Below, in pieces: positions 27,164 through 42,808 of a stretch of DNA of 64,000 bases. This DNA comes from a virus. The stretch is taken from positions 14,667 to 78,666 of the IMG/VR virus record IMGVR_UViG_3300037882_003336; one strand, 5' to 3'. Each line of letters begins with the position of its first letter. Within the stretch, counting starts at the first letter, position 1. The position numbers and the translations under genes are program-made. The notes below the pieces were generated by a model. It was not told the origin of the DNA, ran no database searches, and saw nothing but the letters and a program-made list of their open reading frames with translations.

Positions 27164-27403
27164 ATGGACCGAGAACCAACCCCAGGAGACGTGTGGATGA
27201 TCCGTGGTCAGCCCGGATATATCGACAGCATTGACGGCTCCACGCTGTTGATATGCCACGCCAGCCAAGATGGTGACAAGTGGCGACCAGCCAACATTCA
27301 CGAAGTCGGTGCCCACGTACTGTGGCTCGCTGAGATCAGCAAAACCGACTTTGCCAAACTCTCCCAAGAAGGAGAGTTCCTAGGGAACTGGCCAAGGACT
27401 TAG
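27164..27403 (+). CDS. Small hypothetical protein
   Basis: MDREPTPGDVW... starts 1 nt after the PLD stop. Confidence 0.5.
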   Translation: MDREPTPGDVWMIRGQPGYIDSIDGSTLLICHASQDGDKWRPANIHEVGAHVLWLAEISKTDFAKLSQEGEFLGNWPRT

Positions 27404-28992
27404 TCCTGCTCAACCGTCAGGTCGCGACCCCAAGAGAACCGGATCGGGACGGTCAGGCGGTGGAGTTCATCCTTCACCTGGGGCTGTTCGAAATCCCAGA
27501 ACCCTTGGATTCTGGAGGTGCCAGTGATGTGATTCGAAGTCGTCGCGTCTTCCCAGACCGAGATGCCGATTCCTTGGATGTCGTCCGCATTCCCGACGGA
27601 ACTCGTGAAAACGGCTTCGTAGTCCAGGTAGTGGTTGCCAGCGGTGTAGGACGCTGGGGCGAGGGCGGCGTTGGAGGTGGAGGTACGACCGGCGTGGTTC
27701 TCGCCACCAGCCACCGGGAATGACCCCGGTGTAACGTCGGCGTACAAACAGAGGTTGAAGAAACGAGCGGTTCCAGCGGTGCCTTTCCGGCTCGGCTCCA
27801 TAATGGTCGCGTAGTCTTGAGCGCCAGTCACCGACAGGTTGTTGTAAGTGGCGTTATAGCCAGCAGTTCCGGTGCTGAAATTGGCGATGTTCCACCAGAG
27901 CAGCTTGAACGTTGCAACGGTGTTGTTGTACACCGTGCCAACTGCACCAGCGTCAGTCAGGTTGGTGGCATCGGAAATCGTGATGGTATCGGCGGTCACC
28001 GAGTCGATCACATAGTCACCGTCATAGTCAACGGTGCCGTTGATCGTGATGCTGCCTCCCGCCAAATAATGGTGGTTGCCATCGGTCGTCACCACCCACT
28101 CGGTACCATCGCTCGTGACCGACAGGATGCCGTACTCAACAGGCCAACCGGTGATATCGAATGGCTCGGTGACATGGTCGGCACCCAATGCCGAACCGCA
28201 CTTCACGTAGAGTTCGTAACGGACGCGCAATTGTTGCCCGGTCAGGACTTCTTGGTCTGGAACCAGGAAAATCCGGCTCCACAGGTTGTTGCCAGCACCC
28301 GCTTGGCTGGAGAATCCGATTTCCGTGTAGGTCACATCACCCACTTCTTCCGGGAAGTCGAAGGTGCGGCGGAACAGGACGGTGGCGGTGCCGGAGTCAG
28401 CAATATTATCGCAGGAAAGCGTGACAAGATCCGGGTCCGTGTAAACTGCGTAAGTGTTGCTCCGCTGAGTCTCCGTGCCCATCCCGATCTGGTCAACCCG
28501 GTAGATGATTACATCGTCAGCCACCACCGTTTGGGATCGATCCACGGTGACCGTGGTAGCGCTGGTGAATGTGACAACCTTCGCCTCTTCACCGGAATCC
28601 CAGCGAATCAGGCGTCCTTCATCGTTGATCGTGAAGTCCCGCGCACCGGAGGCTCTGGTTACTGTGGTTCCAGCCTGACTGTAAGTGCCGGTCACATCTT
28701 CTTTGGTCACCTCGGTGCCGGTACCACACACCGCATAGGTGAGTTGGTCGCGCCAGCGTTCGGTCGCCAGACGGTCGAGTCCGCTGTCAAGAATGAGGTT
28801 GTTGATCCAGGGACTTTCCTTGACCACGTTCCCGTTTTCCACCACGTAGACCTTGGCACGACCACGCGCCAGAACCGGTGGCGCTTCGAGAAACCTGTGT
28901 CGGGCAGCAGCCGTCGGTTGTTTAAGCGCAGACCGACGACGCACCCTCTTGGGACGTGGAAGAATCGCGGACGGAATTAGCGGCGGAGTCAT
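27400..28992 (-). CDS. Virion tail/baseplate-associated structural protein
   Basis: NNLILDSGL...AVCGTG, F..EVG...TEIG motifs typical of tail collar/fibre-anchor proteins; Thr-rich beta domains. Confidence 0.65.
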   Translation of the reverse strand: MTPPLIPSAILPRPKRVRRRSALKQPTAAARHRFLEAPPVLARGRAKVYVVENGNVVKESPWINNLILDSGLDRLATERWRDQLTYAVCGTGTEVTKEDVTGTYSQAGTTVTRASGARDFTINDEGRLIRWDSGEEAKVVTFTSATTVTVDRSQTVVADDVIIYRVDQIGMGTETQRSNTYAVYTDPDLVTLSCDNIADSGTATVLFRRTFDFPEEVGDVTYTEIGFSSQAGAGNNLWSRIFLVPDQEVLTGQQLRVRYELYVKCGSALGADHVTEPFDITGWPVEYGILSVTSDGTEWVVTTDGNHHYLAGGSITINGTVDYDGDYVIDSVTADTITISDATNLTDAGAVGTVYNNTVATFKLLWWNIANFSTGTAGYNATYNNLSVTGAQDYATIMEPSRKGTAGTARFFNLCLYADVTPGSFPVAGGENHAGRTSTSNAALAPASYTAGNHYLDYEAVFTSSVGNADDIQGIGISVWEDATTSNHITGTSRIQGFWDFEQPQVKDELHRLTVPIRFSWGRDLTVEQD

Positions 28993-29539
28993 CCCGAAAA
29001 GTAGCATTTTTCTGGCGTAGCCTCTCCATAAGAGCTTTGGTCGCTTTACCGTGGCACGGGTGACAAAGGGTCCGGAGGTCTTTCAAACCACATTGTCCAC
29101 CACCCTCCACCACCGGTATCACGTGGTCGCAGTCCCATCCGGTTGATCTGTGTGGCATCCACCCATTCCACTTCGGCCCAATCATCTCTCGCGCCTTACT
29201 CTTCACCTCTTTCCGCCATTTAGCGAACCAGCCTGGGGCTGGTATTCGTTCTATCATGGTCTCGGCAACCTTGAGGGCAGCGCGGTAAACTGCCATGAAC
29301 TCGGTAAACATCTTGGACGCGTCGCACCCACAGCCAGCGCAGATTCCGCGATCCCTCTTCCACACCGCATGACGAGCCACTGAAGGGTTGTTGCGCAACA
29401 TCCACGCATCCACGCACTCCTTGGAGTGCCATGTTCTCCTACCCTTTCCGGGCGGTCTCCCGCACCCGCAACTGCAGAGTGGGGAACCGTCTTCCGCGAA
29501 CTTTTTGGTGGCGTACTGTCCCCTGCTCGTGCTCACCAT
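28922..29539 (-). CDS. HNH endonuclease
   Basis: RDRGICAGCG...WDCDHVIPVVEGGG...LRTLCHPCH. Confidence 0.9.
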   Translation of the reverse strand: MVSTSRGQYATKKFAEDGSPLCSCGCGRPPGKGRRTWHSKECVDAWMLRNNPSVARHAVWKRDRGICAGCGCDASKMFTEFMAVYRAALKVAETMIERIPAPGWFAKWRKEVKSKAREMIGPKWNGWMPHRSTGWDCDHVIPVVEGGGQCGLKDLRTLCHPCHGKATKALMERLRQKNATFRDDSAANSVRDSSTSQEGASSVCA

Positions 29540-29544
29540 AAGAC

Positions 29545-29790
29545 TTATGGCTTCCCGAAGATCTTCCATAACGGTGTGCCCAGATTGTTCGACTCATCTT
29601 CGTCTTTCGCCAAGGCGATAGCGGAACTCACCTGTTCCTGAAGATCCGCTTCCCCGTCGTCCATTTGCACCCGCGTTCCATCGGGTCTGACCGCCTCAAC
29701 GGACGCTGAGTCCTTTTCCACCGATATCACGATGGACCATCCATCCACGAGCACCTCGGCAGCTTTGTTGACGGTCTCTTCCAGTGTCAT
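29545..29790 (-). CDS. Hypothetical protein
   Basis: 81 aa, coupled to the purB stop. Confidence 0.55.
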   Translation of the reverse strand: MTLEETVNKAAEVLVDGWSIVISVEKDSASVEAVRPDGTRVQMDDGEADLQEQVSSAIALAKDEDESNNLGTPLWKIFGKP

Positions 29791-31022
29791 ATGGAGGGAT
29801 TGGCGTTAGAGTGTGAAGCCAGTTTGATGAGGCGAATGAGGTCCGGTGACACCGTGTGCTTTGCGTCGCCCATCTTCTTCAGTGCAATGGCCTTGGCCTT
29901 TGCACGACTCAATGTCGGGTCTTTGACGCGCTCCCCCACCATGAATGCCTGAGCCATCACGGATGCCGGAACCACTGGTGGATGCTGTGTGACGTGAACC
30001 CTTTCCAGGGTGCTGGTGAGAAGGGTGGTCTGGTGGCAAAGCACGTGGAAAAGATCTGGCCACACGACGTTTTCGACGGCACTGTGCGAGATGTCGCGTT
30101 CATTCCACAATTCCACGTTTTCCAAGAGCGAGTTCGTATACCCGCGCACCAAGCGAGCCATCCCGCAAACACGCTCCAGCCCCACTGGGTTTGGGCGAGA
30201 TTCCTTACCGGGCATCGAGCTACTCGTGGAGGTACCGGCGTTGCGGTGCCCAGCCGAATATACCAATTCCTCGACACCATCTTGAAGCAAGAGGCGAATA
30301 TCGAGTGCGATCCGCGCCAAAACTCCAGAATACACGGCGAGCATCTGTGCAAATGCTGCGTAAAAGTGGCGGGGGACGCACTGAGTGGATGGGTTGACGA
30401 TGAACAGACTTTCCTCAATGTTCGGGCAGGATGTGGTAGAGAGCGGAGACAGACTGAGGCTGTACAGGTCCGGGCGGTAGTAGTAACACCCTACTGAACC
30501 ACCGAACTTCACAGGCATTTGGGTGAGAGTAAACCTTCTCAAGGAGTCTTCGATCTCCCAAAACCAACACTCCAACTTGTGCTTCCATGGGATTGGCTCC
30601 GCGAACCTCCCGTGAGTTCTCGCCATGAGTACGCGACGACTATCCGCGGGGGTGTCCTCTTCCATCACAAGCATGCGACGAATTTGGCCAGTGAGCTTCC
30701 CCGCCAAACCCGACAGTCGGTTCCGGTATTCAACCAGCTGGATTGACAGGGCGGTGTCGGTGACATCGCTGGTCGTGAGGCCAAGGTGGAGGTTCTGAAT
30801 CCCGATGTACGGTTCGATGCACCGCAAGACCGCGTCGAGTTCGTGGCCAGATTCAGCGACAAAGCTATTGAAGTCCGTCCAGCAACAGTGGTTGCGTAGC
30901 AGTTCCTTAGCTTCTCCGTCCGGGTCTTTGGAGCCCGCAAGGAAAAGACTGATCTTAACCCACAAGAAGCGGGTTGATTCCGATACCCACTTGATGTCCT
31001 TATCTTCGTACTTTGGTAGCAT
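29787..31022 (-). CDS. purB: Adenylosuccinate lyase (PurB-like, fumarate lyase superfamily)
   Basis: HLGLTTSDVTDTA, RTHG, GSVG, STQ, SSSMPGK...NP signature loop, LWNERDISHS. Confidence 0.9.
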   Translation of the reverse strand: MLPKYEDKDIKWVSESTRFLWVKISLFLAGSKDPDGEAKELLRNHCCWTDFNSFVAESGHELDAVLRCIEPYIGIQNLHLGLTTSDVTDTALSIQLVEYRNRLSGLAGKLTGQIRRMLVMEEDTPADSRRVLMARTHGRFAEPIPWKHKLECWFWEIEDSLRRFTLTQMPVKFGGSVGCYYYRPDLYSLSLSPLSTTSCPNIEESLFIVNPSTQCVPRHFYAAFAQMLAVYSGVLARIALDIRLLLQDGVEELVYSAGHRNAGTSTSSSMPGKESRPNPVGLERVCGMARLVRGYTNSLLENVELWNERDISHSAVENVVWPDLFHVLCHQTTLLTSTLERVHVTQHPPVVPASVMAQAFMVGERVKDPTLSRAKAKAIALKKMGDAKHTVSPDLIRLIKLASHSNANPSI

Positions 31023-31043
31023 CCAAAGTAAGAACGCCGCCCA

Positions 31044-31478
31044 CTACTCGCGTGGCGTAATACCCCAGAGATTCCACTGACCATCATGGAACCTGAGTTC
31101 AATGATGGATTCATCGGCAGCGGTACCGTCAAAGGTTCGCTGGAAAGCGTCTACGGAAGGCAGGTCTTCACCGTTCGAGTTGTAAACAATGAAGTCGATG
31201 CCGGTCCAGACGCCGGACGCAATGTAAGGCCGGATCGACACCACGTCCCCGGTATTGCGCCCGACTATATCCACCACCAGGGTCCGGTTTCCTGGAGTAC
31301 CGCTGAGTTCCGCCCAGATCGCTGCATTGCCACCTGTTGGGGTCACCTCCACATCAGTGGTGTTCGGCATGGAGACTTCCTGGTATGAGCTACCAGGAGA
31401 CGAACCGGAGGATGGGGTGAACGTCCACGACTGCGGGTTGCGGATGTCGGAGTCGTACGGGAAAGATGGTAAAGACAT
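31044..31478 (-). CDS. Small beta-rich protein, probably virion-associated
   Basis: 144 aa, Ser/Thr/Gly-rich; follows 31488..32822. Confidence 0.55.
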   Translation of the reverse strand: MSLPSFPYDSDIRNPQSWTFTPSSGSSPGSSYQEVSMPNTTDVEVTPTGGNAAIWAELSGTPGNRTLVVDIVGRNTGDVVSIRPYIASGVWTGIDFIVYNSNGEDLPSVDAFQRTFDGTAADESIIELRFHDGQWNLWGITPRE

Positions 31479-31487
31479 CGGTGATAA

Positions 31488-32822
31488 TTAGGGTAGTTTC
31501 CCGGTGAAGTCGCCGGGGGCCAGCGAGTTACAGAGTGTGTAAAGGGCTCGCTCAAACGTCTCTGGATCAGATGGAACACGACCGAAGAAGGCGGCTCGGA
31601 AATACTGACGCGTATAGGCACCAACCGCCCCGTTATCATTGGTCGTGCAGATGTAAAGGTCGAGTTCCGGAAGTGCTCCGGTTGCAACGCCAGCAGTAGC
31701 TAGGACGGTCCTGGAGGCGGTCTGCATGCGCGCCATCTCAATGCCGTCTGTGTTGCTGACAATCGACAGCAAGCCCGTCCGGTCCACCGAGTCCGTGTTG
31801 GAGATAGTGGTGGCACCGACCTGTGCCGAAATAGTCGAGGCACTCGGAAGCGTAAACGCGATGCCATCGGAGTTCAAACGACAGCCCATCACTCGACGGT
31901 TGGCGGTTTCGGTACCAGCCGTCACATACCCGAAGTAGCAATTGTTGAGCAACATGCCAACCTCGGACGGGGTGACATCAATGTCGAAATACCCGGTGGT
32001 GCCTGGGGACCTGAAGGACCGCTCGTTCGACCCGGCGATCCCGAACCCAACCGATCCGAAAAATTCACCTCTGGTGGCGGGTTTGTTGATGTTGAACCCG
32101 CAGTAGATTTTGCTGGCAACCGTGTCGATGGTTCCGGGGCTGGTTTCCATAACCCACGCGGGCAGCATCACGAACGCGTGTGGACCCATCTCGGTGAGGG
32201 ACTGGTCGGCAGCTGTGAAGAACGTGTTCACCATGGCGGTGAAGCCCTCGTCCAGTGTGAGCCCAGCTTCCTCCAATACCGCCCGGTAGGCAAGCGTCCG
32301 GATGTGGAGCGCCGATCCATCTGGCGGAGGGTCACTTGGGTTTGGCGCAACTGCCATCACGTCCAGCCCGAACCATGGGCGCGGGAACATGAACGGAGAG
32401 CGCCTCAAGATCGCTGCCTGCCCCATGTCGCGGATGCGCTCATAAAAGTCTGACACCCAAGCCCTTGTGTATTCCAAATCCGAACCGGAGGTCCAAGTGG
32501 GCGCGGGAACCCGAATCTCCCCGCCCATCGTCATCTTGAAGTACAGCACAGGACCGTTGGAGAACCCGTCCTTTTCCTTGAACTGCATTACCCACCCGTC
32601 TGTGTTCATCCACCCGGCCAACATGCACCGATTGGTCTCACGAGCCCTCGGCATTTTGGTGAGAGCTTCGTTGAACCACCACACAATCGTGCCGTAGTCG
32701 ATGTGGCGGAACCCGCCCGAGTAAGAACCGTTCGAGTCGAACGGCGGCATCCCGTTGCCGGAATGAGCAAGAAACTCGGTTACCCTACCCCAACCGGTGG
32801 ACGCGTCGTATTCAACAGGCAC
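31488..32822 (-). CDS. Putative virion protein with C-terminal lectin/LamG-like region
   Basis: 444 aa; C-terminal beta-rich LDLYIC..NDNG...RAAFFG...LY region resembles tail-fibre lectin domains. Confidence 0.5.
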   Translation of the reverse strand: MPVEYDASTGWGRVTEFLAHSGNGMPPFDSNGSYSGGFRHIDYGTIVWWFNEALTKMPRARETNRCMLAGWMNTDGWVMQFKEKDGFSNGPVLYFKMTMGGEIRVPAPTWTSGSDLEYTRAWVSDFYERIRDMGQAAILRRSPFMFPRPWFGLDVMAVAPNPSDPPPDGSALHIRTLAYRAVLEEAGLTLDEGFTAMVNTFFTAADQSLTEMGPHAFVMLPAWVMETSPGTIDTVASKIYCGFNINKPATRGEFFGSVGFGIAGSNERSFRSPGTTGYFDIDVTPSEVGMLLNNCYFGYVTAGTETANRRVMGCRLNSDGIAFTLPSASTISAQVGATTISNTDSVDRTGLLSIVSNTDGIEMARMQTASRTVLATAGVATGALPELDLYICTTNDNGAVGAYTRQYFRAAFFGRVPSDPETFERALYTLCNSLAPGDFTGKLP

Positions 32823-32830
32823 CCCAAGAC

Positions 32831-34063
32831 CTACTCGTGACTGGCGTTAATGAACATCTTTTTGATCCAGATGGTCTTGATCTGCAGTCGCCCCTGCCCA
32901 TACCGCTGCCTGCGCAGATGCCCGCGCCTCCAGTGCATCCTGACACTTCCACCACTTCCTTCACTATCACTGCCGGAGGACCGATAGTTGCGTCCGATAA
33001 AGTTCGGGCTCCACAGTTCGTCGACACGCTTTTTATGACGCTTAATGCCACCTGCCCTTGAAATGAACGACGGTTCGATGAGTTCCGGGCAGGCGTGCAT
33101 GATAAGGATCAACTGCATCGCAAGGTAGCAAAACCCGGTCTGGTCGGTGATGTTGTTGTGTTTCCTGACCTCCATGCTGCCGAATTGGGTCTTGGGCATG
33201 AAGTGAGAAGCAACGTGGAGGTTGCTGCCCTCGAATGAAATGAACACCATGAACCCGTCGGCTGGAACGTCGTCGAGCACCATTGGGGCCAGCTTTAGTT
33301 CAGTCTCGACATCCAGTCGCTTGATTGCCTCTTCGGTGGCATGCGGGAGTGGGTAGACGTCAGGAGAGACGTGGCGACCCGGCTCGACCCGAATAACGGT
33401 GAGCGCGGTCACGCGAGTCTCCCTACCTCCGCTCATCGCCACGCACTCCGGAGGCATTACGAACATCATCGCTTCGTGTGGCCATGGGGTCTCGGCAATG
33501 TCCTCACCCTTTGGCAGATCGGTAGCGATGGCATCCTTGTAGAACTCACTCGACACGTAAAACACAGGGGTGTCAGTGCGTGCCGCGATCCCGGTAGCGG
33601 CCAGCGTGATCATGCGCATTGCGTGATCCTCGTCATTCTTTGGCAGGTGGTATGCACGCTGCAGGAACATGTGCGCCACCCCACGGATCGAGACAGCAGG
33701 GTTGATGTATCCCCACACGTTCCGGTAATTCCGCGTCAACATCTTCCTAGACACGTGATCGACGATGTCGAGCAACATCCGGTTGGACATCCGGTCCACA
33801 TCCTCATCCTCATGAGTGGTCTCAAGCCCAAGCAGCTTTTTTAGCAGCGTGATAGTGTATTCCTTGCCTTTGAGTTCCGAGACCGCCTTGGTCTGGGCCA
33901 ACTTGAAGATACTGTGGAACAGATGCTTTGGGACCATGGACTTGGCCTTCTCCATGAACTCATCGGGTGTCATCACCTGCCCAGCAGACTCCATGAGCAG
34001 GGAGGATACAGCGTCCACGTACTTGGCGGTGGACATCTGTTGACGGAGAGCGGACTTGGCCAT
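32831..34063 (-). CDS. Hypothetical protein with C-terminal HWRRGH motif
   Basis: VRMHWRRGHLRRQRYGQG...IWIKKMFIN; start MAKSALRQ at 34063. Confidence 0.65.
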   Translation of the reverse strand: MAKSALRQQMSTAKYVDAVSSLLMESAGQVMTPDEFMEKAKSMVPKHLFHSIFKLAQTKAVSELKGKEYTITLLKKLLGLETTHEDEDVDRMSNRMLLDIVDHVSRKMLTRNYRNVWGYINPAVSIRGVAHMFLQRAYHLPKNDEDHAMRMITLAATGIAARTDTPVFYVSSEFYKDAIATDLPKGEDIAETPWPHEAMMFVMPPECVAMSGGRETRVTALTVIRVEPGRHVSPDVYPLPHATEEAIKRLDVETELKLAPMVLDDVPADGFMVFISFEGSNLHVASHFMPKTQFGSMEVRKHNNITDQTGFCYLAMQLILIMHACPELIEPSFISRAGGIKRHKKRVDELWSPNFIGRNYRSSGSDSEGSGGSVRMHWRRGHLRRQRYGQGRLQIKTIWIKKMFINASHE

Positions 34064-34067
34064 GGGA

Positions 34068-34754
34068 TCAGTTCTTGGCGACCAGCTTAGTGGACTTTTT
34101 GGCGGGGATCTTTTTGGCAACCGTCTTTGGCTTGGTCTTAGCCTTGGCGACCGTCTTTGGCTTGGAGGTGGTCTTGACAAGGACGCGGGGGCTGGACGCC
34201 TTGGCGGTAGTCTTTTTCTTCGTCGCCACCGGAGTCTTTTTGGTCACCTTCACCATATCTCCATCGTTGGTCAGTGGCACCGGGTCAGCGGGTTGTGGAA
34301 TCAGACCACCATCTTCAGCACCAAATGGGGATTCGCTGGGGAGCGGCAACTCCAGGGTGTCTTTGGATATCCCATACAGCGGCAAACCGGGCGGCTTGTC
34401 GGGGGTGATGGTGGGGGTAGCGGCGGAAGTGTCGTCCCCACCGTCCTCTTCGGCGTCGCCTTCACCCTTTCCCTCGCTGATGTTTGGCAGCAGCTGCTGT
34501 TCCTCTTCCGTGCTGTTGGCCAGCGGGTTGGCGGGAACCGGTGGGTAGGTGGGCGGCGTGGGTGCAGCGGGGGTACCTGGGGTACCGGGCTTCTGGTCGC
34601 CGAACTTGGCTTCGAATTCGAACAAGCTGCTTTCCCCCTTGCTGCGCATGAAGACGGTCGGGGACCTGCCTTGGATGGTACTTTCGAGGTGGATGATCCA
34701 GACGAACTGGGCAGTGACGATGACGCTCAGGATGGCGATAGTGATGGTTCTCAT
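34068..34754 (-). CDS. Membrane-anchored Pro-rich protein with Lys/Ala/Thr-rich (histone H1-like) tail
   Basis: MRTITIAILSVIVTAQFVWII TM; PGTPGTPAAPTPP; KPKTVAK repeats. Confidence 0.6.
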   Translation of the reverse strand: MRTITIAILSVIVTAQFVWIIHLESTIQGRSPTVFMRSKGESSLFEFEAKFGDQKPGTPGTPAAPTPPTYPPVPANPLANSTEEEQQLLPNISEGKGEGDAEEDGGDDTSAATPTITPDKPPGLPLYGISKDTLELPLPSESPFGAEDGGLIPQPADPVPLTNDGDMVKVTKKTPVATKKKTTAKASSPRVLVKTTSKPKTVAKAKTKPKTVAKKIPAKKSTKLVAKN

Positions 34755-34791
34755 GGTGTTGGCGATGTTGATTGTGGTTAGACTGGGAATG

Positions 34792-35160
34792 TTAAAACGG
34801 CACGTAATCGGTGGCTTCGGTATCCTCGACGATTGAAGCCGCCACCAAAGTAGCACGGCTCGGGAAAATCTCGACGTAGGTGTCGGAATCGTGACCATGC
34901 GTCGCGTAAAACTCTGCCACCCAAACATCAGCGGCGGCGTGATCCTCGACGCGGTGAATCTGAGTCGTGACCTGACCAGCGTAAGCGTCGGTCGAACGGC
35001 AGTAGTAGGAATGCGAAACCGTGATCCGGATCGGACCGCTGCCGGTAGCCTCGACATCGCAGGAAAGCTCGCGAGCCACTTGCTCAGCTTCTGCAAGACA
35101 ATTGCGGAGTTCGACTGAAGATCCATCGTGTGGGAAGCGGAGGATGTTGTTGTTGCGCAT
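34792..35160 (-). CDS. Hypothetical early protein
   Basis: First gene behind promoter P3. Confidence 0.65.
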   Translation of the reverse strand: MRNNNILRFPHDGSSVELRNCLAEAEQVARELSCDVEATGSGPIRITVSHSYYCRSTDAYAGQVTTQIHRVEDHAAADVWVAEFYATHGHDSDTYVEIFPSRATLVAASIVEDTEATDYVPF

Positions 35161-35165
35161 CCCCC

Positions 35166-35194
35166 ATTATACCACACAAGAAAACTCTTGTCAA
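35166..35194 (-). promoter_or_regulatory. Sigma70-type promoter P3 (leaderless)
   Basis: TTGACA-17-TATAAT, extended TG, ATG 5 nt downstream. Confidence 0.9.
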
Positions 35195-35454
35195 GTAGTA
35201 TGGTCCGCGTACCGCCTAAGCAACACAAAAATGGGGTCGTTGCAGGGGGCATCATCCAGACTTCTCAGGTCGTCTAACTGGATGTGACGGCCAAGGCGCT
35301 TTTCAGTGCAGAGCGTGCAGATGATAAGCCTGCGGTTCCCGCCATTGATAGCACTCCACAGGTCCGGCCTGAGAATCGGCCCGAGCCCACAATGGCCACA
35401 GTCCTCGCACTTGTAGTAGCGATCCAGATTCTTCGGTCTCGGTTTTTCGTTCAT
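35191..35454 (-). CDS. Small Zn-binding phage protein
   Basis: CEDC...LW...CTLCTEKRLGR; start MNEKPRPK at 35454. Confidence 0.6.
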   Translation of the reverse strand: MNEKPRPKNLDRYYKCEDCGHCGLGPILRPDLWSAINGGNRRLIICTLCTEKRLGRHIQLDDLRSLDDAPCNDPIFVLLRRYADHTT

Positions 35455-35468
35455 CACTTTGATACGGG

Positions 35469-35613
35469 TCGGGGGTGGCCGACCCCTCCCAGGCTCGACC
35501 ACCCCCGATTCATGAGTCCAACGGCAAGCCCTCCCAGTCCGACCGTTGGAAATTTGAGCGAAGATGGCCAGCCCTCCCAGTCCGACCACCCTCGCGCCAC
35601 CAATTGCGGTGAC
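35469..35613 (-). ncRNA. Candidate structured RNA: three tandem hairpins with CUGGGAGGG loops plus a small fourth hairpin
   Basis: Stems at 35469-35508, 35517-35550 and 35558-35595 differ in sequence yet pair; plus-strand A-C mismatches are G-U pairs on the minus strand. Confidence 0.7.
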
Positions 35614-35661
35614 ATCAAACAAGAAAAACGTGCTTAGCGTGTATTTGGCGACAGCGTAAGC

Positions 35662-36246
35662 TCACATAGCCGCTGCCTCTGGCATTGACGGGAACCCCGG
35701 ATACGCCTTGTCGCGGAACGTCTCTTTCACCATGTCCAACCGACCTTTGAACTCCCGGTCAATGCGGGCGTTTTCGCGGTCAAACGCATCCAGATACAAC
35801 AGTTCCTCTTCCGCCCAAGCAGTGCGAACCGACTTTTCATCCTGTTCCGGGTGTCGTAGGATAAGCGCACGCCCAATCCCAGTGAACTTCCAATCAACCA
35901 TCACACCCCGCCTACGAAGCTTATCCACCACTTGGTTGGTACCGCTCTTCCCAAGCAGGCTCGCCAACACCGGAACACCGTGCTTGAAAATAAACGGATC
36001 ACACTTACCGAACTCTTCGCCCAGTGTGCATTCGCCACGAGCGTCGTAGGAATCACCTACTGACTTTGGCACCACCGTGAGAACCGGTGGTGCCACTATC
36101 ACGGGTCCAAGTTCGTCATCCTCCAATACCAGTTCCTCAGTATCGTCAACCAATTCTTCCTCCACCTCTTCTGGTTCAATCTCACGAAGCCCAGCGTACT
36201 GATCTTCGTGAGCCTCGTCTGCAAATGGGTCGTAGTCGATCCGCAT
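35662..36246 (-). CDS. Hypothetical protein with acidic N-terminus
   Basis: Start MRIDYDPF at 36246. Confidence 0.6.
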   Translation of the reverse strand: MRIDYDPFADEAHEDQYAGLREIEPEEVEEELVDDTEELVLEDDELGPVIVAPPVLTVVPKSVGDSYDARGECTLGEEFGKCDPFIFKHGVPVLASLLGKSGTNQVVDKLRRRGVMVDWKFTGIGRALILRHPEQDEKSVRTAWAEEELLYLDAFDRENARIDREFKGRLDMVKETFRDKAYPGFPSMPEAAAM

Positions 36247-36247
36247 A

Positions 36248-36475
36248 TCAGGTCTGGATGGTGGTAATAAAGTCGAACGCATCTTCCATGGTCTCAAACG
36301 GCTCTTCCCTCACTGCAGCCTGTTCGTGTTCTGCTCCCCGGTACACCATCCAACCTCTGGGTTCCAGGACAGCGGCGGCAATGAAGTTGCTGGCTGCTGA
36401 CAAGCCGTAGTAGGTGAGGTAGCGTGCGGGCACGCGGCGAAAGTACATAGCGTCTTCTGGAATGTTCTCAACCAT
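36248..36475 (-). CDS. Small hypothetical protein
   Basis: MVENIPED..., between purZ and the next gene. Confidence 0.5.
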   Translation of the reverse strand: MVENIPEDAMYFRRVPARYLTYYGLSAASNFIAAAVLEPRGWMVYRGAEHEQAAVREEPFETMEDAFDFITTIQT

Positions 36476-36479
36476 TTCG

Positions 36480-37748
36480 TTATAGGGTGGAAGCGTGGTC
36501 TGTCTCGGGAGACCAGTTGAAGAGCACGTGCTCTTCACCACAGTAAACGTCCGAATCGGCCATGAACTTAGTAAGGCTTTTTCCGTGCTCGTGTGCTGCT
36601 TTTGGGTCTCCGTTCAGGTAGTTGAGGAACGTTAGGAACATAAATACACCACCCGGTGCGTTGTTCAGTCTCACGAAATCCCGCCATGCGATTTCGCTCA
36701 TGGTCGCGATGCGGCGTGGGAGCTTGGTGAGAGTTGTGATTTCGCTCGGCACGTCCCAGCCAGCGTAAGACCGGATTTCGTCCCATGTGAGTTCGGTCTG
36801 GTCAGTTTCCCAACCCCCGCTAGACCCTTCGACCACTTGGATTTCGTCGCCTCTACCGTCGGCGCGGAGTGCGTCGATTTCGACTTGGGTCAGAAACGCC
36901 CCGTTGTGGAGGTATCGGTTGCTGGCAATGCGAATTGGGAAGGTCCGGTTGACGCCAACGACCGAATTGAGCAACGCGGGGGCCACACAGGTCTCGCTGA
37001 GGAATGAAGCCACCGAAGTGGACCGGCTCGTGCAGTACGGGTAGTGCGGGCCGTAATTGGAAAGCTGAAAGCCCTGTGACCCGTCGAGCAGCGCCCCGTT
37101 GTAACAATTGGCGATGGTTTCGTTGATGTCACCGCGTGGCTGCGCGTACTCCCACACCGCATTCACATCACGAGCCATGGTGGCCCTCCGAAGCGCACGT
37201 TTGGCGCGGGCGGCTCCGGAGCCGGACCCGGTGGTGCCAGTGCGAGACAATGCCAAGTCCCGGTCAGCGATGGGCTTTCCGTTGAAGTCGTGGGTTCCGT
37301 TCTCCAATCCTTCGTCCTCTGGCGTGACGATCGCGGCCAGAGGGTGAATGAAAAGGTGGGTGCGGGGAACTTCCAGCATTTCCACTTCTTTCTTCAGGTC
37401 TTCCGGCTTGAACGCCGCGCCCGGTCCAATGAAGATGTAGGGGCGATAGTCCTGATAGCCCCAATAAAACGCACCGGCTGGAAGCACCTTCACCACCCCG
37501 CTTCGGCTCACCGAAGAATCGGTAACGGTGTGGCTAGAATTCCGCGAGTTGGCGGTCAATAGCACCCCCGGTCGCCCAATCTTGGCGAGCAAGGCGCTTG
37601 CACACCCCTTGGCCTCAGAACCGGTCTGAGCACCCATGACCACTGAAACCCGGTTCGGCTTGAAGATGTTCTTGACGAGCCCATCTCGCTCAAAGAGCCT
37701 CTGGTTGTCATTGAAGTGTCTGGACCAAGCTTTGGGATCGTACGTCAT
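36480..37748 (-). CDS. purZ: PurA homolog with PurZ (2-amino-deoxyadenylosuccinate synthetase) signatures
   Basis: GAQTGSEAKG (Ser at the PurA catalytic Asp13 position), NSSHT, GTTGSG, DGSQG..YPYCTSR, RTFPIR, TTLTKLPRR, FLTFLNY in place of TKLD. Confidence 0.8.
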   Translation of the reverse strand: MTYDPKAWSRHFNDNQRLFERDGLVKNIFKPNRVSVVMGAQTGSEAKGCASALLAKIGRPGVLLTANSRNSSHTVTDSSVSRSGVVKVLPAGAFYWGYQDYRPYIFIGPGAAFKPEDLKKEVEMLEVPRTHLFIHPLAAIVTPEDEGLENGTHDFNGKPIADRDLALSRTGTTGSGSGAARAKRALRRATMARDVNAVWEYAQPRGDINETIANCYNGALLDGSQGFQLSNYGPHYPYCTSRSTSVASFLSETCVAPALLNSVVGVNRTFPIRIASNRYLHNGAFLTQVEIDALRADGRGDEIQVVEGSSGGWETDQTELTWDEIRSYAGWDVPSEITTLTKLPRRIATMSEIAWRDFVRLNNAPGGVFMFLTFLNYLNGDPKAAHEHGKSLTKFMADSDVYCGEEHVLFNWSPETDHASTL

Positions 37749-37770
37749 AAAGTGTAGCAGAAAACGGTGT

Positions 37771-37962
37771 TTACTCGCGGGTCTTCCGATTGAAGAACTG
37801 GTAGATGCGCTCACGCAGTGAACCCAGCAGAGACAGGGTCGCGGTAGGTGCCCATGTTGGGCATTTTGGATGAGCCGACAAGCCCATGTCGCACTGGTAT
37901 GCGCCATAGGCGAAGTTGGCAGAGTAACGGCAGGTGTTGCAGGACCGTGGAAGATGTTTCAC
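37771..37962 (-). CDS. Small Cys-rich hypothetical protein
   Basis: CNTCRY...C...CPTW. Confidence 0.45.
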   Translation of the reverse strand: MKHLPRSCNTCRYSANFAYGAYQCDMGLSAHPKCPTWAPTATLSLLGSLRERIYQFFNRKTRE

Positions 37963-37978
37963 GCCAGCCTAGAAAACC

Positions 37979-38170
37979 CTAATATGGCATCTCGTTCCAA
38001 GTACCGGGCTCTGGCAGTCCCAAACGGGAGGAAGTCTTCACCCAGGTCTGATCCCTGGGGTTGTAAGTCTGATCCTCGCGGAAGAGTGGCTCACCGTTTT
38101 CGAATCCAGCGGCTTTGGAACCACGGTGGATGCGGCGACCGAGTGCTGACCATTGGGCGAAGGTTTTCAT
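37979..38170 (-). CDS. Small hypothetical protein
   Basis: MKTFAQWSALGRRIHRGSKA; coupled to the upstream stop. Confidence 0.55.
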   Translation of the reverse strand: MKTFAQWSALGRRIHRGSKAAGFENGEPLFREDQTYNPRDQTWVKTSSRLGLPEPGTWNEMPY

Positions 38171-38880
38171 AATGGAACTTGTACGCGTTTTTCGACGATC
38201 GTGGCAGTTGGGTTGATGGCACGGCATTTGTCGAGTGCTGACTCCATAGTGTTGTACTTCTGTGTGTTAAGTTCCCTAACCGAAGAATTCACATAGTAGT
38301 GTTGACCCTCAGACCACTTGGAAATCGTAAACACCTCCTGTTTGTAAAGCCCAACCATATCACCATTCCACTCCATGGAGTCTGTCACCTTTTCAATGGG
38401 GTCGGTGCGCATCCCACCTTGGAAGTTCACAAAGACGTTGTCCTCCTTGTCGAGCAGCGCCTTGGCAGTCGCAGCCCACATAGTGCCAAACTCAGCCCAC
38501 GACGGATGCTTTCCTTCTTTTACTGCCATATCCATGTGAATATTGCGTTCCTGCAGCACTTTGAACTGCTTAGTGAACCAGTCTCGGTACAGATGTAGGC
38601 GCGGTAAGTCGAGCTTGGTGAGGTGAATAAACCACGCTTTGTAGTCATTCGGTTCCAGAGAGGTGTCAAGCAACGCCAGAGTTATGGGCGAAGGCCGATC
38701 GGGTGGCTCCACGCCAACGATTTCGGCCATTGCTCGGACTTTCCGGGCTTGCTGTTGAGCCTTTTTCACAATCCTCGGGCTCATACCGGATTCATCGACG
38801 ATCTTGGCGTCGCGTTCGGCCATGTCGGCTAGAGTTGAGGCAAACTCGCGGAGTTCCTCGATGGTGAATTCAGGGCTCAT
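38167..38880 (-). CDS. Hypothetical protein
   Basis: 237 aa, coupled to the TOPRIM gene. Confidence 0.6.
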   Translation of the reverse strand: MSPEFTIEELREFASTLADMAERDAKIVDESGMSPRIVKKAQQQARKVRAMAEIVGVEPPDRPSPITLALLDTSLEPNDYKAWFIHLTKLDLPRLHLYRDWFTKQFKVLQERNIHMDMAVKEGKHPSWAEFGTMWAATAKALLDKEDNVFVNFQGGMRTDPIEKVTDSMEWNGDMVGLYKQEVFTISKWSEGQHYYVNSSVRELNTQKYNTMESALDKCRAINPTATIVEKRVQVPL

Positions 38881-39761
38881 TGTGGTTTCAGGGTTTCAGC
38901 TAGTGCGTCGAGTTTGATGCGGAGTTCCTCTTCCTTGTAACAAGAGTCGTTCCATTTATCTTCATCGCGGAGGCTAAGAACTCCGTTCCGGCAGATGGTG
39001 GCGAGCAGTTCCACATCCAGTGCGTCAAGCTCCCACGACTCGTTGCCGTACTTGGCGACGTACTCGGGGGCGCGACTGTCGCTCATCTTGGTGGGGTTGG
39101 GGATGAGATTGTGCCGTTCGATCTGGCGCATGGTGAGCGCTGCCCGGTGCACCGTGATGTCGGACTGGGAGAACAAAGCGAGGCGGTCCGCCACGTCCGT
39201 GCTCATGTGAACTCCGCTCGGATCGAAGTCCCCGAAGTAGATCACGTGGCATTTCTTCCTGCCCGCCACGGTGCGCTCCTGCAGTTCCTTGCCAAGGTCG
39301 TACATCGCGGTGGCACTGCTGTACCCCTTGTTGGAGTGGAATGGCACTTCCAGCTTTCGGCACACTGGAGCCAATACGCCCTCAAGCGCCTGCTTCTCGC
39401 ATGCCACCACCACGTAATTTGTCTGGTCCTGCCATTTGTCGATCTTGAAGCCCTCGACGGTGCTGCGCATGATGTGGTATGGGGAATCCCAAGTCTGGAC
39501 GATATGAGGTACCCGTCCCCGATCCACGATCGCGTCCCAGTCGATCAGCCCCGCCATCCGTCCGTCGGCGACCGCGCCCTTCAGCCGGTCGTATGACTCC
39601 TGCGAGTTCGGGTAGACGTTGTCCTTGACGCCTTGGTAGAAAAGCTGGCGCAAGGAGAGTGAATACCCGCGAGCCAAATAATCCGAACAGACCCCGTCAG
39701 CCCACGTGATCAGGCGCATGGTCTCGCTGCGGAACGCTTTGTCGATGAACTTTTCGTACAT
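38877..39761 (-). CDS. Topoisomerase VI-A/Spo11-like winged-helix + TOPRIM protein
   Basis: SLRQLFYQ, VACEK, KGYSS, YFGDFDPSG, WELDAL motifs. Confidence 0.8.
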   Translation of the reverse strand: MYEKFIDKAFRSETMRLITWADGVCSDYLARGYSLSLRQLFYQGVKDNVYPNSQESYDRLKGAVADGRMAGLIDWDAIVDRGRVPHIVQTWDSPYHIMRSTVEGFKIDKWQDQTNYVVVACEKQALEGVLAPVCRKLEVPFHSNKGYSSATAMYDLGKELQERTVAGRKKCHVIYFGDFDPSGVHMSTDVADRLALFSQSDITVHRAALTMRQIERHNLIPNPTKMSDSRAPEYVAKYGNESWELDALDVELLATICRNGVLSLRDEDKWNDSCYKEEELRIKLDALAETLKPQ

Positions 39762-39766
39762 CCGAC

Positions 39767-39795
39767 ACTATAACACAGCCCGTGACTTTTGTCAA
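39767..39795 (-). promoter_or_regulatory. Sigma70-type promoter P4 (leaderless)
   Basis: TTGACA-17-TATAGT, extended TG, ATG 5 nt downstream. Confidence 0.88.
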
Positions 39796-39796
39796 G

Positions 39797-42700
39797 TCAT
39801 ACCACCGTGAGCTTTTCCAAGTCGACTTGCGCAGCCTCTCCCCTCATCGTCGTGATGTGGGCTTTCCCGTCTTTGTAGTGGTAGATGAAGCCCTTGGTGG
39901 ACTTTTTATCCCCCCACTTCACAAGCTCACTTCCATCAATCGCTGGTTTCATGGCCGACTTGGCTGGAAGGGTGTTGCCGTTGCTGAGCGTGATGTACGG
40001 ACCCATCACGGTGACGACGAGCGCCAGTTTCTTGTCCGCTATCGCGTAAGCAACGTCGCCGATTTCGAACGGGTTATCCTTGCTTGGATTAGTTGGGTTG
40101 CCGTGACCGTAGGCGGCAAACATCTTGGTGACCTTATTGACTTGGGCAAGCTCGTCATCGCCCATGAGGTTGGAGACATCCGGAGTTGGCGACGCTTTTT
40201 CCAGCGCATATGCCGGTACCATGAACACCGCTGGGGTACCAGCGTCGGAAGACTTCGGAATGTGTACAACGCATTGAGCCACATTGAAGTCGTCGTCGAC
40301 CAGTGTCAACAAGACCTTTCCGGTGGCTGTTGGTGCCAGCCCGAACTTGAATGAACCATCAGGATAGTCCGACACCTTGGTACCCTCGGGAATGACAACG
40401 GAGTCCCCAATCACCCAGTCACCTTCGGTACCCCAAGCCGAACGGGCTGGCGCGAACTTCACCGCACTATCCAGGTTGAAGATCATCGACTCACCCTTGT
40501 TGATAGTGTCATTACCAACTTTCCCACTGAGCATTTTGACAATCACATGATCGCTCTCCACAGTCTCTATCGCGCCCCTCGCATCCACCTTCCCACCGTA
40601 TTCGGTCCCGTCCTCGTCGCCGTCTGTGTACTCACCCTTGATGGTGACGGGTGACCCAGGCACCATGTAATAAACGGGTGCTTTGATACTGGCAATGTCT
40701 TTGAGCTTGCTGATGCTGTTGTCGGTCTTCGGGTTGTCACCGGGCTTTTTGATCTGGGCAACACTCACCAAGTGATAGGTGCTGTCCTTGGTGAGTGATG
40801 GGATGTAAACGACGCACGAAGCCACGTCGAACGTGTGAGGGTCAACCAACGTCAGTGCGACAGTGGCTTTGAGGTCCTTCTCGATCTCCACGTGAGCGTT
40901 CGTGCCGTATCCGAAAATCGTGCTACCGCTCTTCACGATGACCTTATCACCAATCTTTAGGTCATCTGGCTTGATCTGCCATGACTCCATGGCGATCTTC
41001 TTGAACGCCACGACCTTTCCGGGATCAAAGTTGTCAAACCCCGTAGTGTTCGAGAAGATCTTGACGTCGGCGGCGTCTGCCGTCATGGTCGTGATCATAC
41101 CGAGCACCTCCCCGGTTGGAACCTTTATGCGGACCGGGCTGGCAGTGCGGAGGAATGACACGTCGTTCTTGAGTTGGTACTCCAGTTTCTCGTGGTACCC
41201 ATCATTGAAGTCAACGTCCGTGTAGGAGGACACCGCCATCATGTTCTGGATTGTCTCTCCGACCGCTTTTTCGATCGCGTCTTCATGCTCGTCGAAGAGC
41301 TTTTTAGCCAGCTGCCTGACCTTTACCGCCAAGTTGTTCGGGGAACTCGCGAACCCAAATGCAGCCAGTTCGTCGTCCCACGCTTGTTGCGACATGCTCG
41401 CCTTCGAGTATGGGTAAGCTTTGTACAACTCCCTCATGTAGTCGACTGCTGCCTCTGTGGCTTTGGTAAGCTCCGACTTATTGTCCTGTGCCCCCGTGGA
41501 GAGGTCTATTGAGTTTACATCAACTTCACTCAGGTCAATTTTCCCATCGGCGTGCTCCGTTGTAATGAACACCTTTCCTTCATGGGCAACATCAGAGTCG
41601 TCCATGATTGTTACCTCGGTCCCGTCATGAAGTTTCGCCTTCACGGGTAGCTTCACTGTTGTCAGAATGACATCGGGCTTCACGATTCCAGAGGTAACTC
41701 CAGAGATGGGAAGGTGAACCACGATCTGCACAGAACCGTTGTTAAGTTTGGAGTTCACCCACGCCAGGGTCTTTTCCTCTTCTCCATCGTGTTTCCACCA
41801 CGGGTCCTTGCCATCTTCTGCGTTTCCGACAACTACAAGTGACTTGGCAGCGAGTGCAGGCGCTGCTGTGAATGCTGGTGCTGTGGCACCCTTGGTGCCA
41901 GTGACTGCACCAAGGTTCTTATCGGGGACTGGCTCCGGAATTGGCTTGCCGGATGCATAAGCGGCGGCACGCACGATCTTCTTGGCTTGGCTGGAACACT
42001 TGGGGAGCAGCGTTCCAACGTTTTCCACACTCGCTTTCATGTCGAGTGCCTTTTTGAGCCACCCGTATCCACCACCGATCGCATATCGCTTGACCTTGTT
42101 GAATACGGTTCCGGTGTTGTGCTGAAGGTCGTAAACATGGTCAATGGCAACCGCCCGTTCCCGGCTGTTTTTGGCGGAGTTCAGCCGCAACCACCCATCC
42201 GTGATGCCCTTCCACGCCCTGCCACCGTAGGAACTGCTCCAACTTCCCTTGTCGTAACAGATACCCGCGTACTGGACAAAAGCGGCATCCGTCCAGTTCA
42301 TCTCCTTCATGGTGCGCCTGACCGCATCAACTGCAGCGCTGTAGTCAGGTGATGAACCACCCTTTTCCTCGGGTGGGCGTTCAAACCGTGGCATGTTACC
42401 GGGCGAGGAAACACGGCGCACCAACTTGCGCGTGAAGCTGACCTGTTCCTTGGTCAGTTCGTTCACCAACGCCGACTGTGGTCTGTCCGACAGGTGGCGC
42501 ATTTCAGCACAGATCGAAATGAACGTGGCGTCCAGCAATTCCCGCTGAAGGTTGGGTAAGAGGGTCTCAAATGCAGCCCGTATGTCGTCCTTGATGTTGG
42601 AGCGGCCAAAGAAGCTCGCCGTTTGTCTCCCCATCATATCGGTACCGGGCGCTTGCCCCTCGTCCGGAAGACCGGAGGAGAAGGCCCAGGAGAGTGCATA

Positions 42701-42808
42701 GAAGTCAAACAAGGAGACTTCGGGGTTTGATGGGGAGGTGTAGTTCAAAGCTTCTCCCAACAGAGAACCCCTCATTGCCTTGTTAATTGACTCCAGTAGC
42801 GGCATCAC
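39797..42808 (-). CDS. Large multidomain protein (helical IDHxYDLQHNTG domain plus repeated SH3/KOW-like barrels)
   Basis: 1003 aa; YGGRAW..I, IDHVYDLQHNTG; duplicated IGD.V.....LTLVD...F.VA.CVV.IP modules. Confidence 0.65.
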   Translation of the reverse strand: MMPLLESINKAMRGSLLGEALNYTSPSNPEVSLFDFYALSWAFSSGLPDEGQAPGTDMMGRQTASFFGRSNIKDDIRAAFETLLPNLQRELLDATFISICAEMRHLSDRPQSALVNELTKEQVSFTRKLVRRVSSPGNMPRFERPPEEKGGSSPDYSAAVDAVRRTMKEMNWTDAAFVQYAGICYDKGSWSSSYGGRAWKGITDGWLRLNSAKNSRERAVAIDHVYDLQHNTGTVFNKVKRYAIGGGYGWLKKALDMKASVENVGTLLPKCSSQAKKIVRAAAYASGKPIPEPVPDKNLGAVTGTKGATAPAFTAAPALAAKSLVVVGNAEDGKDPWWKHDGEEEKTLAWVNSKLNNGSVQIVVHLPISGVTSGIVKPDVILTTVKLPVKAKLHDGTEVTIMDDSDVAHEGKVFITTEHADGKIDLSEVDVNSIDLSTGAQDNKSELTKATEAAVDYMRELYKAYPYSKASMSQQAWDDELAAFGFASSPNNLAVKVRQLAKKLFDEHEDAIEKAVGETIQNMMAVSSYTDVDFNDGYHEKLEYQLKNDVSFLRTASPVRIKVPTGEVLGMITTMTADAADVKIFSNTTGFDNFDPGKVVAFKKIAMESWQIKPDDLKIGDKVIVKSGSTIFGYGTNAHVEIEKDLKATVALTLVDPHTFDVASCVVYIPSLTKDSTYHLVSVAQIKKPGDNPKTDNSISKLKDIASIKAPVYYMVPGSPVTIKGEYTDGDEDGTEYGGKVDARGAIETVESDHVIVKMLSGKVGNDTINKGESMIFNLDSAVKFAPARSAWGTEGDWVIGDSVVIPEGTKVSDYPDGSFKFGLAPTATGKVLLTLVDDDFNVAQCVVHIPKSSDAGTPAVFMVPAYALEKASPTPDVSNLMGDDELAQVNKVTKMFAAYGHGNPTNPSKDNPFEIGDVAYAIADKKLALVVTVMGPYITLSNGNTLPAKSAMKPAIDGSELVKWGDKKSTKGFIYHYKDGKAHITTMRGEAAQVDLEKLTVV

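Follow-up and report, generated by a model that had tools for sequence, protein, structure and literature searches.

PurZ-type synthetase: gene, active site and phylogeny

The virus record IMGVR_UViG_3300037882_003336 is a linear sequence of 78,666 bp, of which bases 14667–78666 form the 64,000-nt stretch analysed here (hereafter the window, to which all positions refer unless another sequence is named). On its minus strand we identified two genes, 5,457 bp apart, which together are predicted to specify a route to nucleotides of 2-aminoadenine (Z), namely a synthetase of the PurZ type and a lyase of the PurB type:

36480–37748, minus strand: long-form PurZ-type synthetase (predicted succino-aminodeoxyadenylate synthase), 422 aa; assigned from PHROG, NCBIfam, PDB and Foldseek matches, active-site residues and trees
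29787–31022, minus strand: PurB-type homologue of adenylosuccinate lyase (411 aa), expected to turn succino-aminodeoxyadenylate (dSMP) into aminodeoxyadenylate (dZMP) and fumarate; assigned from Pfam, TIGR00928, PDB and Foldseek matches and active-site residues

The initial annotation of this DNA had reported a synthetase with three diagnostic motifs and a divergent PurB 5.5 kb away on the same strand. Its coordinates and motifs proved exact in the translated open reading frame (ORF), where GAQTGSEAKG occupies residues 39–48, TTLTKLPRR residues 338–346 and FLTFLNY residues 371–377, and the lyase gene lies where it had been placed.

The synthetase ORF is intact, with the ATG at 37748 as the chosen start. 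A longer frame reaching to 37907 would add 53 Cys/His-rich residues; because no homologue covers this extension, and because residues 1–24 of the structural model are already of low confidence, we retained the shorter form. No Shine–Dalgarno-like sequence was evident ahead of the ATG at 37748, and the 418-bp stretch upstream of purZ (37749–38166) holds an 82-aa ORF (37979–38227) that has no family match.

For the comparison of active-site residues, hits of 300–520 aa among the best 150 were aligned with E. coli PurA (D13) as the reference, and residue roles were drawn from the literature (PMC8342488; bioRxiv 10.1101/2025.10.22.683976). The reference features of E. coli PurA on which the initial annotation relied are present in the K-12 gene, as GTQWGDEGKG, Arg303 and K331-L332-D333. 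The positions compared were as follows:

E. coli D13 / phiVC8 S14: window Ser44; Ser in 128 of 132 aligned homologues
phiVC8 T262 (S-2L T273): window Thr338; kept
phiVC8 W252: window Trp322; kept
phiVC8 P233: window Pro271; kept
phiVC8 F295/N297/Y298: window Phe374/Asn376/Tyr377; adenine-type donor pocket, replacing E. coli K331/D333
E. coli R303: window Leu343; Leu in 43 of 136 aligned homologues
phiVC8 F12 (S-2L Y21): window Thr42; differs, at a variable position
phiVC8 Y244: window Glu314; differs

Where canonical PurA has Asp13, Arg303 and Asp333, the window protein has Ser44, Leu343 and Asn376, and the last of these also distinguishes it from the PurZ0 pocket, which has Asp at position 333. 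Ser at the Asp13 position is found in 100 % of phage PurZ enzymes (PMC12884076), and Arg303 of PurA touches O2' of inosine monophosphate (IMP), a contact that is lost in PurZ (PMC8342488). The TTLTKLPRR loop corresponds to TTVTKKVRR of phiVC8. The general catalytic residues are also kept (His73, Lys47, Gln225, Arg187 and Arg345, with Gly43 present as well), and equivalents of the P-loop Gly/Lys, His41, Gln224, Arg143 and Arg305 of the PurA-superfamily fold were all found in the window protein.

Family searches placed the synthetase with PurZ. It matched PHROG 1211, the PurZ family, at 1.4e-35 and the PurA family of Pfam (PF00709) only weakly (7e-15, 55 bits), whilst among NCBIfam models the PurZ family NF038379 scored best (138.4 bits), ahead of archaeal-type PurA (115) and bacterial PurA (66), with all three scores below the curated cut-offs. 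Ranked against PDB sequences, the closest entries were phiVC8 PurZ (1.4e-23) and S-2L PurZ (6e-19), followed by Pyrococcus horikoshii PurA (6e-18), PurZ0 (2e-11) and E. coli PurA (1e-4). An AlphaFold2 model (predicted local distance difference test, pLDDT, 82.9; predicted template-modelling score, pTM, 0.85) returned the same order in Foldseek, where 6TNH, 6FKO and 6FM1 were the best matches at a template-modelling (TM) score of 0.82.

An HMMER scan of 1.84 billion representative sequences yielded 1,452 relatives of the synthetase, and the nearest 150 database clusters were all PurZ-like. Trees built with FastTree (136 sequences) and IQ-TREE (LG+C20, quick search; 69 sequences) agreed with one another and grouped the protein with PurZ, rather than with ordinary PurA, when PurA, PurZ and PurZ0 were compared. 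The window protein forms a clade (support 100) with four metagenomic homologues which are only 44–59 % identical to it and in which the catalytic positions are all invariant. This clade falls within a set of long-form proteins (support 93–98), 400–480 aa in length and invariably with Leu at position 303, to which ORF141 of Flavobacterium phage MaF61 also belongs; the long-form set is in turn nested inside an FxNY clade holding phiVC8 PurZ (support 96–97). Outside the FxNY clade lie GTP-type forms with Asp333 (including that of Streptomyces phage Hiyaa), a Gly331 group and Gly13 forms; Leu at position 303 also occurs in short PurZ forms near phiVC8. The only true PurA outgroup in these trees is E. 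coli, a long branch, and no named archaeal PurA is included; as judged from these alignments, the placement within the PurZ clade is well supported and the root is not.

Several matches of 750–850 aa were considered as possible PurB–PurZ fusions, a notion that we rejected. These database relatives (P0016, P0018, P0020, P0025, P0032, P0081, P0111 and P0142) are PurZ-type homologues in which inteins, carrying LAGLIDADG homing endonuclease and HINT domains, break up the synthetase in at least two different places.

PurB-type lyase and its pairing with PurZ in other phages

The lyase gene is likewise an intact frame. Its product matched Pfam Lyase_1 (PF00206) at 1e-16, its best NCBIfam family was TIGR00928 (purB), and its best PDB sequence match was the adenylosuccinate lyase of Thermotoga maritima (3.8e-30). 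Structural comparison pointed in the same direction, as the best Foldseek matches to the model (pLDDT 75.1, with a low-confidence C-terminus) were adenylosuccinate lyases without exception, and muconate cycloisomerase and the like ranked below them. When the window PurB was aligned with four other phage PurBs and three cellular PurBs, H60, T83, D86, H137, S267, S268, K273, N278 and E283 were invariant, and the two catalytic His residues and the SSxMPxKxN serine loop of the fumarase/aspartase superfamily are kept in the window protein. Sequence and model thus indicate a lyase of the PurB type with intact catalytic residues and an adenylosuccinate lyase-like fold, for which activity is predicted.

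Scans for relatives of the synthetase returned one viral locus and three metagenome loci with a five-sequence alignment, and none with P0003, one of its closest homologues, alone. One of the loci, L019, is a metagenome contig of 218,247 bp that is related to the window phage (45 % identity in the tail tube protein, 50 % in a topoisomerase-like gene and 32 % in a DUF7168 protein). Here a PurB homologue (32 % identity) lies 7.3 kb upstream of a PurZ (42 % identity) on the same strand, near genes for a thymidylate synthase, a methyltransferase and Baseplate_J and a weak match to a deoxynucleoside monophosphate kinase. The thymidylate synthase ORF of this contig (L019:6916-8496, 526 aa) has its ThyA domain split by an I-HmuI/NUMOD-like endonuclease segment, possibly an intron or an intein-like insertion.

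The pairing also occurs in MaF61 (PQ858689), a myovirus in culture (167.8 kb) whose contractile tail was seen by transmission electron microscopy (PMC13269007); it carries a long-form PurZ and a PurB 10 kb apart. Further genes of this phage include a guanylate kinase (Gmk; 54 bits), an HD_3/YfbR-like hydrolase (29 bits; same domain type as DatZ), MazG and a family-B DNA polymerase (PolB); PolA was not found in MaF61. Its candidate genes are located as follows (coordinates within loci L003 and L016):

L003:14989-16332: PurZ
L003:26673-28028: PurB
L016:6417-7004: Gmk
L016:39189-40025: HD_3/YfbR-like
L016:41501-42133: MazG
L016:10410-13394: PolB

The paper describing MaF61 does not discuss its PurZ, its PurB or these other Z-set candidates (PMC13269007). 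In the 79 kb of MaF61 that we compared, no gene besides PurZ and PurB was detected in common with the window record, and on this comparison MaF61 belongs to a different phage lineage in which the pairing recurs independently. Full-length matches to the MaF61 long-form PurZ in the GenBank phage collection comprised MaF61 itself and one 55-kb Bacillus siphophage (24 % identity).

Phage records matching the window PurB numbered 23, 11 of them Gordonia or Streptomyces phages; of these 11, Ghobes and Hiyaa were inspected, and both have an enzyme of the PurZ0 type. The pairing is thus conserved in relatives of the window genes, and the evidence from L019, MaF61 and the actinophage PurB matches suggests that it is meaningful.

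Phage type, missing pathway partners and neighbouring genes

CheckV put the completeness of the 78.7-kb record at 39 %, so that the full genome should measure about 200 kb. The 14.7 kb upstream of the window encode a T4 Gp23-type capsid protein (1.5e-37) and an S77 prohead protease, and the closest cultured capsids are those of Bacillus phage SP-15, Listeria phage LIS04 and Maribacter phages, at 26–33 % identity. The capsid gene itself (record bases 9071–10519) has SP-15 as its nearest cultured relative (33 % identity); SP-15 is a phage of 222 kb whose DNA is known to be hypermodified. The window also contains a tail tube gene. A tail sheath was not recognized, either in a PF04984 search or by tblastn of the 535-aa ORF adjoining the tube gene. 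The large, contractile-tailed phage of the initial annotation is therefore upheld as to its size, by the CheckV estimate, whereas the contractile tail, and with it the term myovirus, is inferred from the T4-type head genes and from Baseplate_J in the 218-kb relative. No DNA match to GenBank phages was obtained when the region was searched with Megablast. Among public sequencing runs, one of aquatic origin contained 5 % of the sampled words, which we do not take as evidence of habitat. The G+C content is even across the window (0.51–0.59), and because of this purZ and purB do not stand out as foreign.

The initial annotation had recognized no DatZ, MazZ or DpoZ in the window, and this holds for the whole 78,666-bp record, on which family searches with PF12917, PF13023-type, PF00476, PF03819, PF04447 and PF00136 were negative. 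Taken together, these family scans and a Pfam sweep of 58 further record ORFs turned up no HD/YfbR, MazG, DUF550, PolA or PolB, and likewise no dUTPase, NDT, deaminase or nucleotide kinase. In a control with phiVC8, PF12917 (DatZ) and PF00476 (PolA) recovered their targets and PF04447 and PF03819 did not, so that the MazZ part of the negative result is weak. Adenosine deaminase (PF00962) had no match in the record, in L013 (a related 43-kb fragment described below) or in MaF61. As ∼60 % of the genome is unseen, these negatives describe the record and not the whole phage.

Two sigma-70-type promoter-like sites, both pattern matches only, were found near the gene pair:

39767–39795, minus strand: TTGACA-17-TATAGT with TG, 11 of 12 matches
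35166–35194, minus strand: TTGACA-17-TATAAT with TG, a perfect match (12 of 12)

The first stands directly upstream of the gene starting at 39761, which heads the minus-strand run containing purZ. The second lies between purZ and purB and may start a transcript reaching purB; it also seems to favour a 122-aa ORF (34792–35160) over the overlapping 395-aa ORF 34068–35255. Both sites end about 5 bases ahead of an ATG (35160 and 39761), suggesting leaderless transcripts.

The genes in 31044–36297, 38167–38880 and 39797–42808 had no Pfam or NCBIfam match. For genes flanking or lying between purB and purZ, PHROGs gave only phrog_6053 and phrog_20946, families without an assigned function, and neither the three searched against PDB sequences nor the two searched against the ESM Atlas had a match. 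The 294-aa product of 38877–39761 (minus strand) has a match to phrog_6247, labelled 'DNA topoisomerase' (5.6e-90), and is 50 % identical to the product of a gene near the L019 PurB and PurZ; in Pfam it has only weak DUF7281/DUF2399 (Toprim-like) matches. Directly downstream of purB is an HNH endonuclease gene (28922–29569, minus strand), which overlaps the start of the 535-aa ORF 27400–29007. Farther away, three paralogous virion proteins (1443–3350, 4632–6794 and 6802–14880, all on the minus strand) share a C-terminal module, phrog_10356, and the largest of them, at 2,692 aa, carries Laminin_G_3 and CBM_5_12 domains.

Interpretation and comparison with known systems

Taken together, these data suggest that the 422-aa protein belongs to the ATP-dependent PurZ enzymes, as a longer and divergent form that would act on deoxyguanosine monophosphate (dGMP) to give dSMP. 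The phage PurB-type lyase would then take fumarate off dSMP to leave dZMP, which would be phosphorylated to the triphosphate dZTP by kinases supplied either by the host or by the missing portion of the phage genome, and the phage replicase, which is of family B in the cultured MaF61, would place dZTP opposite T. On the sequence evidence, the two enzymes probably form a module that makes dZMP from dGMP. Z-DNA in the window phage is plausible, whilst substantial substitution of the virion DNA is, in our estimation, evenly balanced between being present and being absent. Of the candidate Z-genome proposed in the initial annotation, the dZMP pathway is thus supported by the predicted enzymes, whereas for the exclusion of deoxyadenosine triphosphate (dATP) nothing is recognizable on the 39 %-complete record. 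A broader proposal, that the long-form Leu303 branch represents an independent Z-DNA system, self-sufficient for the most part, in large phages with T4-type heads, is put forward tentatively and somewhat against the balance of our own expectation. Such a system would combine PurZ with its own PurB, in some phages along with Gmk, HD and MazG proteins, and would use a family-B polymerase rather than DpoZ and exclude dATP differently from the known Z-clusters of sipho- and podoviruses.

A number of observations weigh against this interpretation. In the synthetase, Thr42 replaces the aromatic residue that sits beside the 2-amino group (F12 of phiVC8), and Glu314 stands in place of phiVC8 Y244. An aromatic residue at the F12 position is nevertheless a weak criterion, because the position varies across the family (F in 50, W in 30, Y in 28, A in 17 and T in 2 of 136 aligned homologues). 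Both proteins fall short of the curated family thresholds, the synthetase with 138 bits against the NF038379 cut-off of 300, from which we conclude that it represents a divergent sub-branch, and the lyase with 135 bits against the TIGR00928 cut-off of 326. Alone among the aligned sequences, the window PurB has a 3-residue insertion in its serine loop, between Lys273 and Asn278. Its C-terminal domain is short, with ADSL_C (PF10397) not detected and PF00206 the only family seen by Pfam, and it has no relative above 34 % identity in an index of 5.8 billion proteins. In L013, a fragment with CheckV completeness of 16 % and a major capsid protein 53 % identical to that of the window phage, PurZ is present and no PurB was found in the 43-kb stretch. 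Some large phages, such as Microcystis phage MaAM05, have PurB without PurZ, and for this reason PurB could be a general purine gene. The classic Z-cluster, with a dATP/dGTP-hydrolysing partner and a dedicated polymerase, was not found on the 78.7-kb record, on which neither a dATP-excluding enzyme nor a polymerase is recognizable. Finally, the substrate, the product and, above all, any substitution of virion DNA are predictions, as is catalysis by the long-form branch.

The lack of recognizable DatZ, MazZ, DutZ and DpoZ on the record would fit an alternative in which dZMP is made whilst the genome is substituted only in part or not at all, as the phage would have neither a means of excluding dATP nor a Z-selective polymerase; the module would then perturb the nucleotide pool by draining dGMP and dATP, or give mixed A/Z DNA. 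Removal of dATP is required where the polymerase does not discriminate, as has been shown for S-2L (PMC8342488), and Z-cluster genes expressed in E. coli led to only partial substitution. We nonetheless consider this outcome unlikely, given that the record is only ∼39 % complete, that MaF61, the one complete long-form genome, has HD_3 and MazG candidates, and that S-2L PurZ itself consumes dATP (PMC8342488). The peculiarities of the enzymes themselves could instead reflect a shift of substrate in the long-form branch, to guanosine monophosphate, deoxyinosine monophosphate or another purine nucleotide, such that together with the lyase it would make another product, possibly a different modified purine. 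The distinct long branch with its ∼80 extra residues, universal Leu303, variable position 42 and sub-cut-off PurZ score would be in keeping with this, as would a dedicated and very divergent PurB whose altered catalytic loop could reflect an unusual substrate. Such a shift appears quite improbable, however, as the residues that contact the 2-amino group and the adenine donor in solved PurZ structures are all kept save for F12 of phiVC8, which is variable family-wide, and as Leu303 is seen in short PurZ forms near phiVC8 too.

Successive action of PurA and PurB is the textbook route from IMP to adenosine monophosphate, and an ordinary salvage pair supplying adenine nucleotides during infection would also accommodate the PurB genes that stand alone in other large phages. 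In the window synthetase, however, the catalytic Asp13 has become Ser, the GTP-specifying Asp333 Asn and Arg303 Leu; PurZ-like sequences make up 150 of the 150 nearest clusters, the match to E. coli PurA is very weak (1e-4), and both trees place the protein inside the PurZ clade. This alternative is therefore very unlikely, and the designation of the synthetase as PurZ-type rather than PurA-type, made in the initial annotation, is one on which residues, phylogeny, fold and the pairing in relatives agree, as far as can be told from sequence. We give almost no weight to the notion that one or both genes are decaying relics devoid of activity. The loop insertion and short C-terminal domain of PurB and the sub-cut-off scores of both proteins might be read in that way, but both frames are intact, the catalytic residues are invariant across homologues that are 28–59 % identical, and the models are confident (pLDDT 82.9 for PurZ and 75.1 for PurB).

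A dZMP-producing module in a phage of this kind would have several implications. If the long-form branch is active, the modification would extend to phages of ∼170–270 kb with T4-type heads and different replicases, and the lyase step would be seen to be capable of being phage-encoded. The set of Z-DNA enzymes would also widen, to include a new PurZ scaffold, a dedicated dSMP lyase and dZTP-accepting polymerases. An active branch would likewise be of relevance to metagenomics and to phage–host defence, since Z-DNA resists many restriction enzymes, and the question is directly testable because a member of the branch, MaF61, is in culture.

Z-genomes have been documented only in small sipho- and podoviruses with a PolA-type DpoZ or PrimPol, which are said to rely on host PurB. 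A 2026 paper leaves room for 'uncharacterized phage proteins' in the lyase step. In the literature searched, with the 2021 Science papers outside the search, no paper tied PurZ to myoviruses, T4-like or jumbo phages, and two jumbo-phage reviews did not mention PurZ. The PurZ enzymes of phiVC8 (DgsS) and S-2L (6FM1/6FKO/6TNH and 7ODX) share with the window protein the fold (TM 0.82), the clade, Ser at the Asp13 position, the TTxTK loop, the F/N/Y adenine-type pocket and the loss of the Arg303–O2' contact. They differ from it in that identity is only ∼25–28 %, in that the window protein is ∼80 residues longer (through extensions at both termini and ∼30 aa inserted after Ile274), and in having Lys/Arg rather than Leu at position 303 and Phe/Tyr rather than Thr beside the 2-amino pocket. 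Moreover, they come from podo- and siphoviruses of ∼40 kb, whereas the window phage is of ∼200 kb with T4-type head genes and has no recognized DatZ, MazZ or DpoZ on its 39 %-complete record.

MaF61 (ORF141, ORF149) is similar in pairing a Leu303 PurZ of 400–480 aa with a phage PurB in a large myovirus, whilst identity to the window proteins is only 29–31 % in PurZ and 23 % in PurB. Bacterial PurB enzymes (T. maritima 1C3U and Bacillus anthracis 2PFM) have in common with the window lyase the fold, both catalytic His residues, the SSxMPxK serine loop and Glu283, and differ in that the window protein is only 24–26 % identical to them and has the 3-residue loop insertion and a short C-terminal domain lacking PF10397. 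The PurZ0 actinophages also encode a PurB-type lyase a few kilobases from a Ser13 synthetase of the PurA family; Gordonia phage Ghobes gp36 is annotated as PurB-like, and in Streptomyces phage Hiyaa the PurB-like gp76 lies 4.4 kb from the PurA-like gp67. Their synthetases, however, are of the GTP type (Asp333), accompanied by DutZ/DmtZ and a PolA-type DpoZ in siphoviruses of 45–83 kb, whereas the window enzyme is of the ATP type and the window PurB only 25–26 % identical to theirs. The initial annotation had presented a self-contained PurZ–PurB pathway as a departure from phages that rely on host PurB; the pairing itself stands, but with annotated PurB-like genes already present in Ghobes and Hiyaa the novelty claimed for a phage-encoded PurB was overstated. 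What sets the window system apart is the enzyme branch, long and with Leu303, the lack so far of the classic partners, and the carrier, a phage of ∼200 kb with T4-type head genes instead of a sipho- or podovirus of 40–80 kb; the proposed chemistry is that of the known PurZ route.

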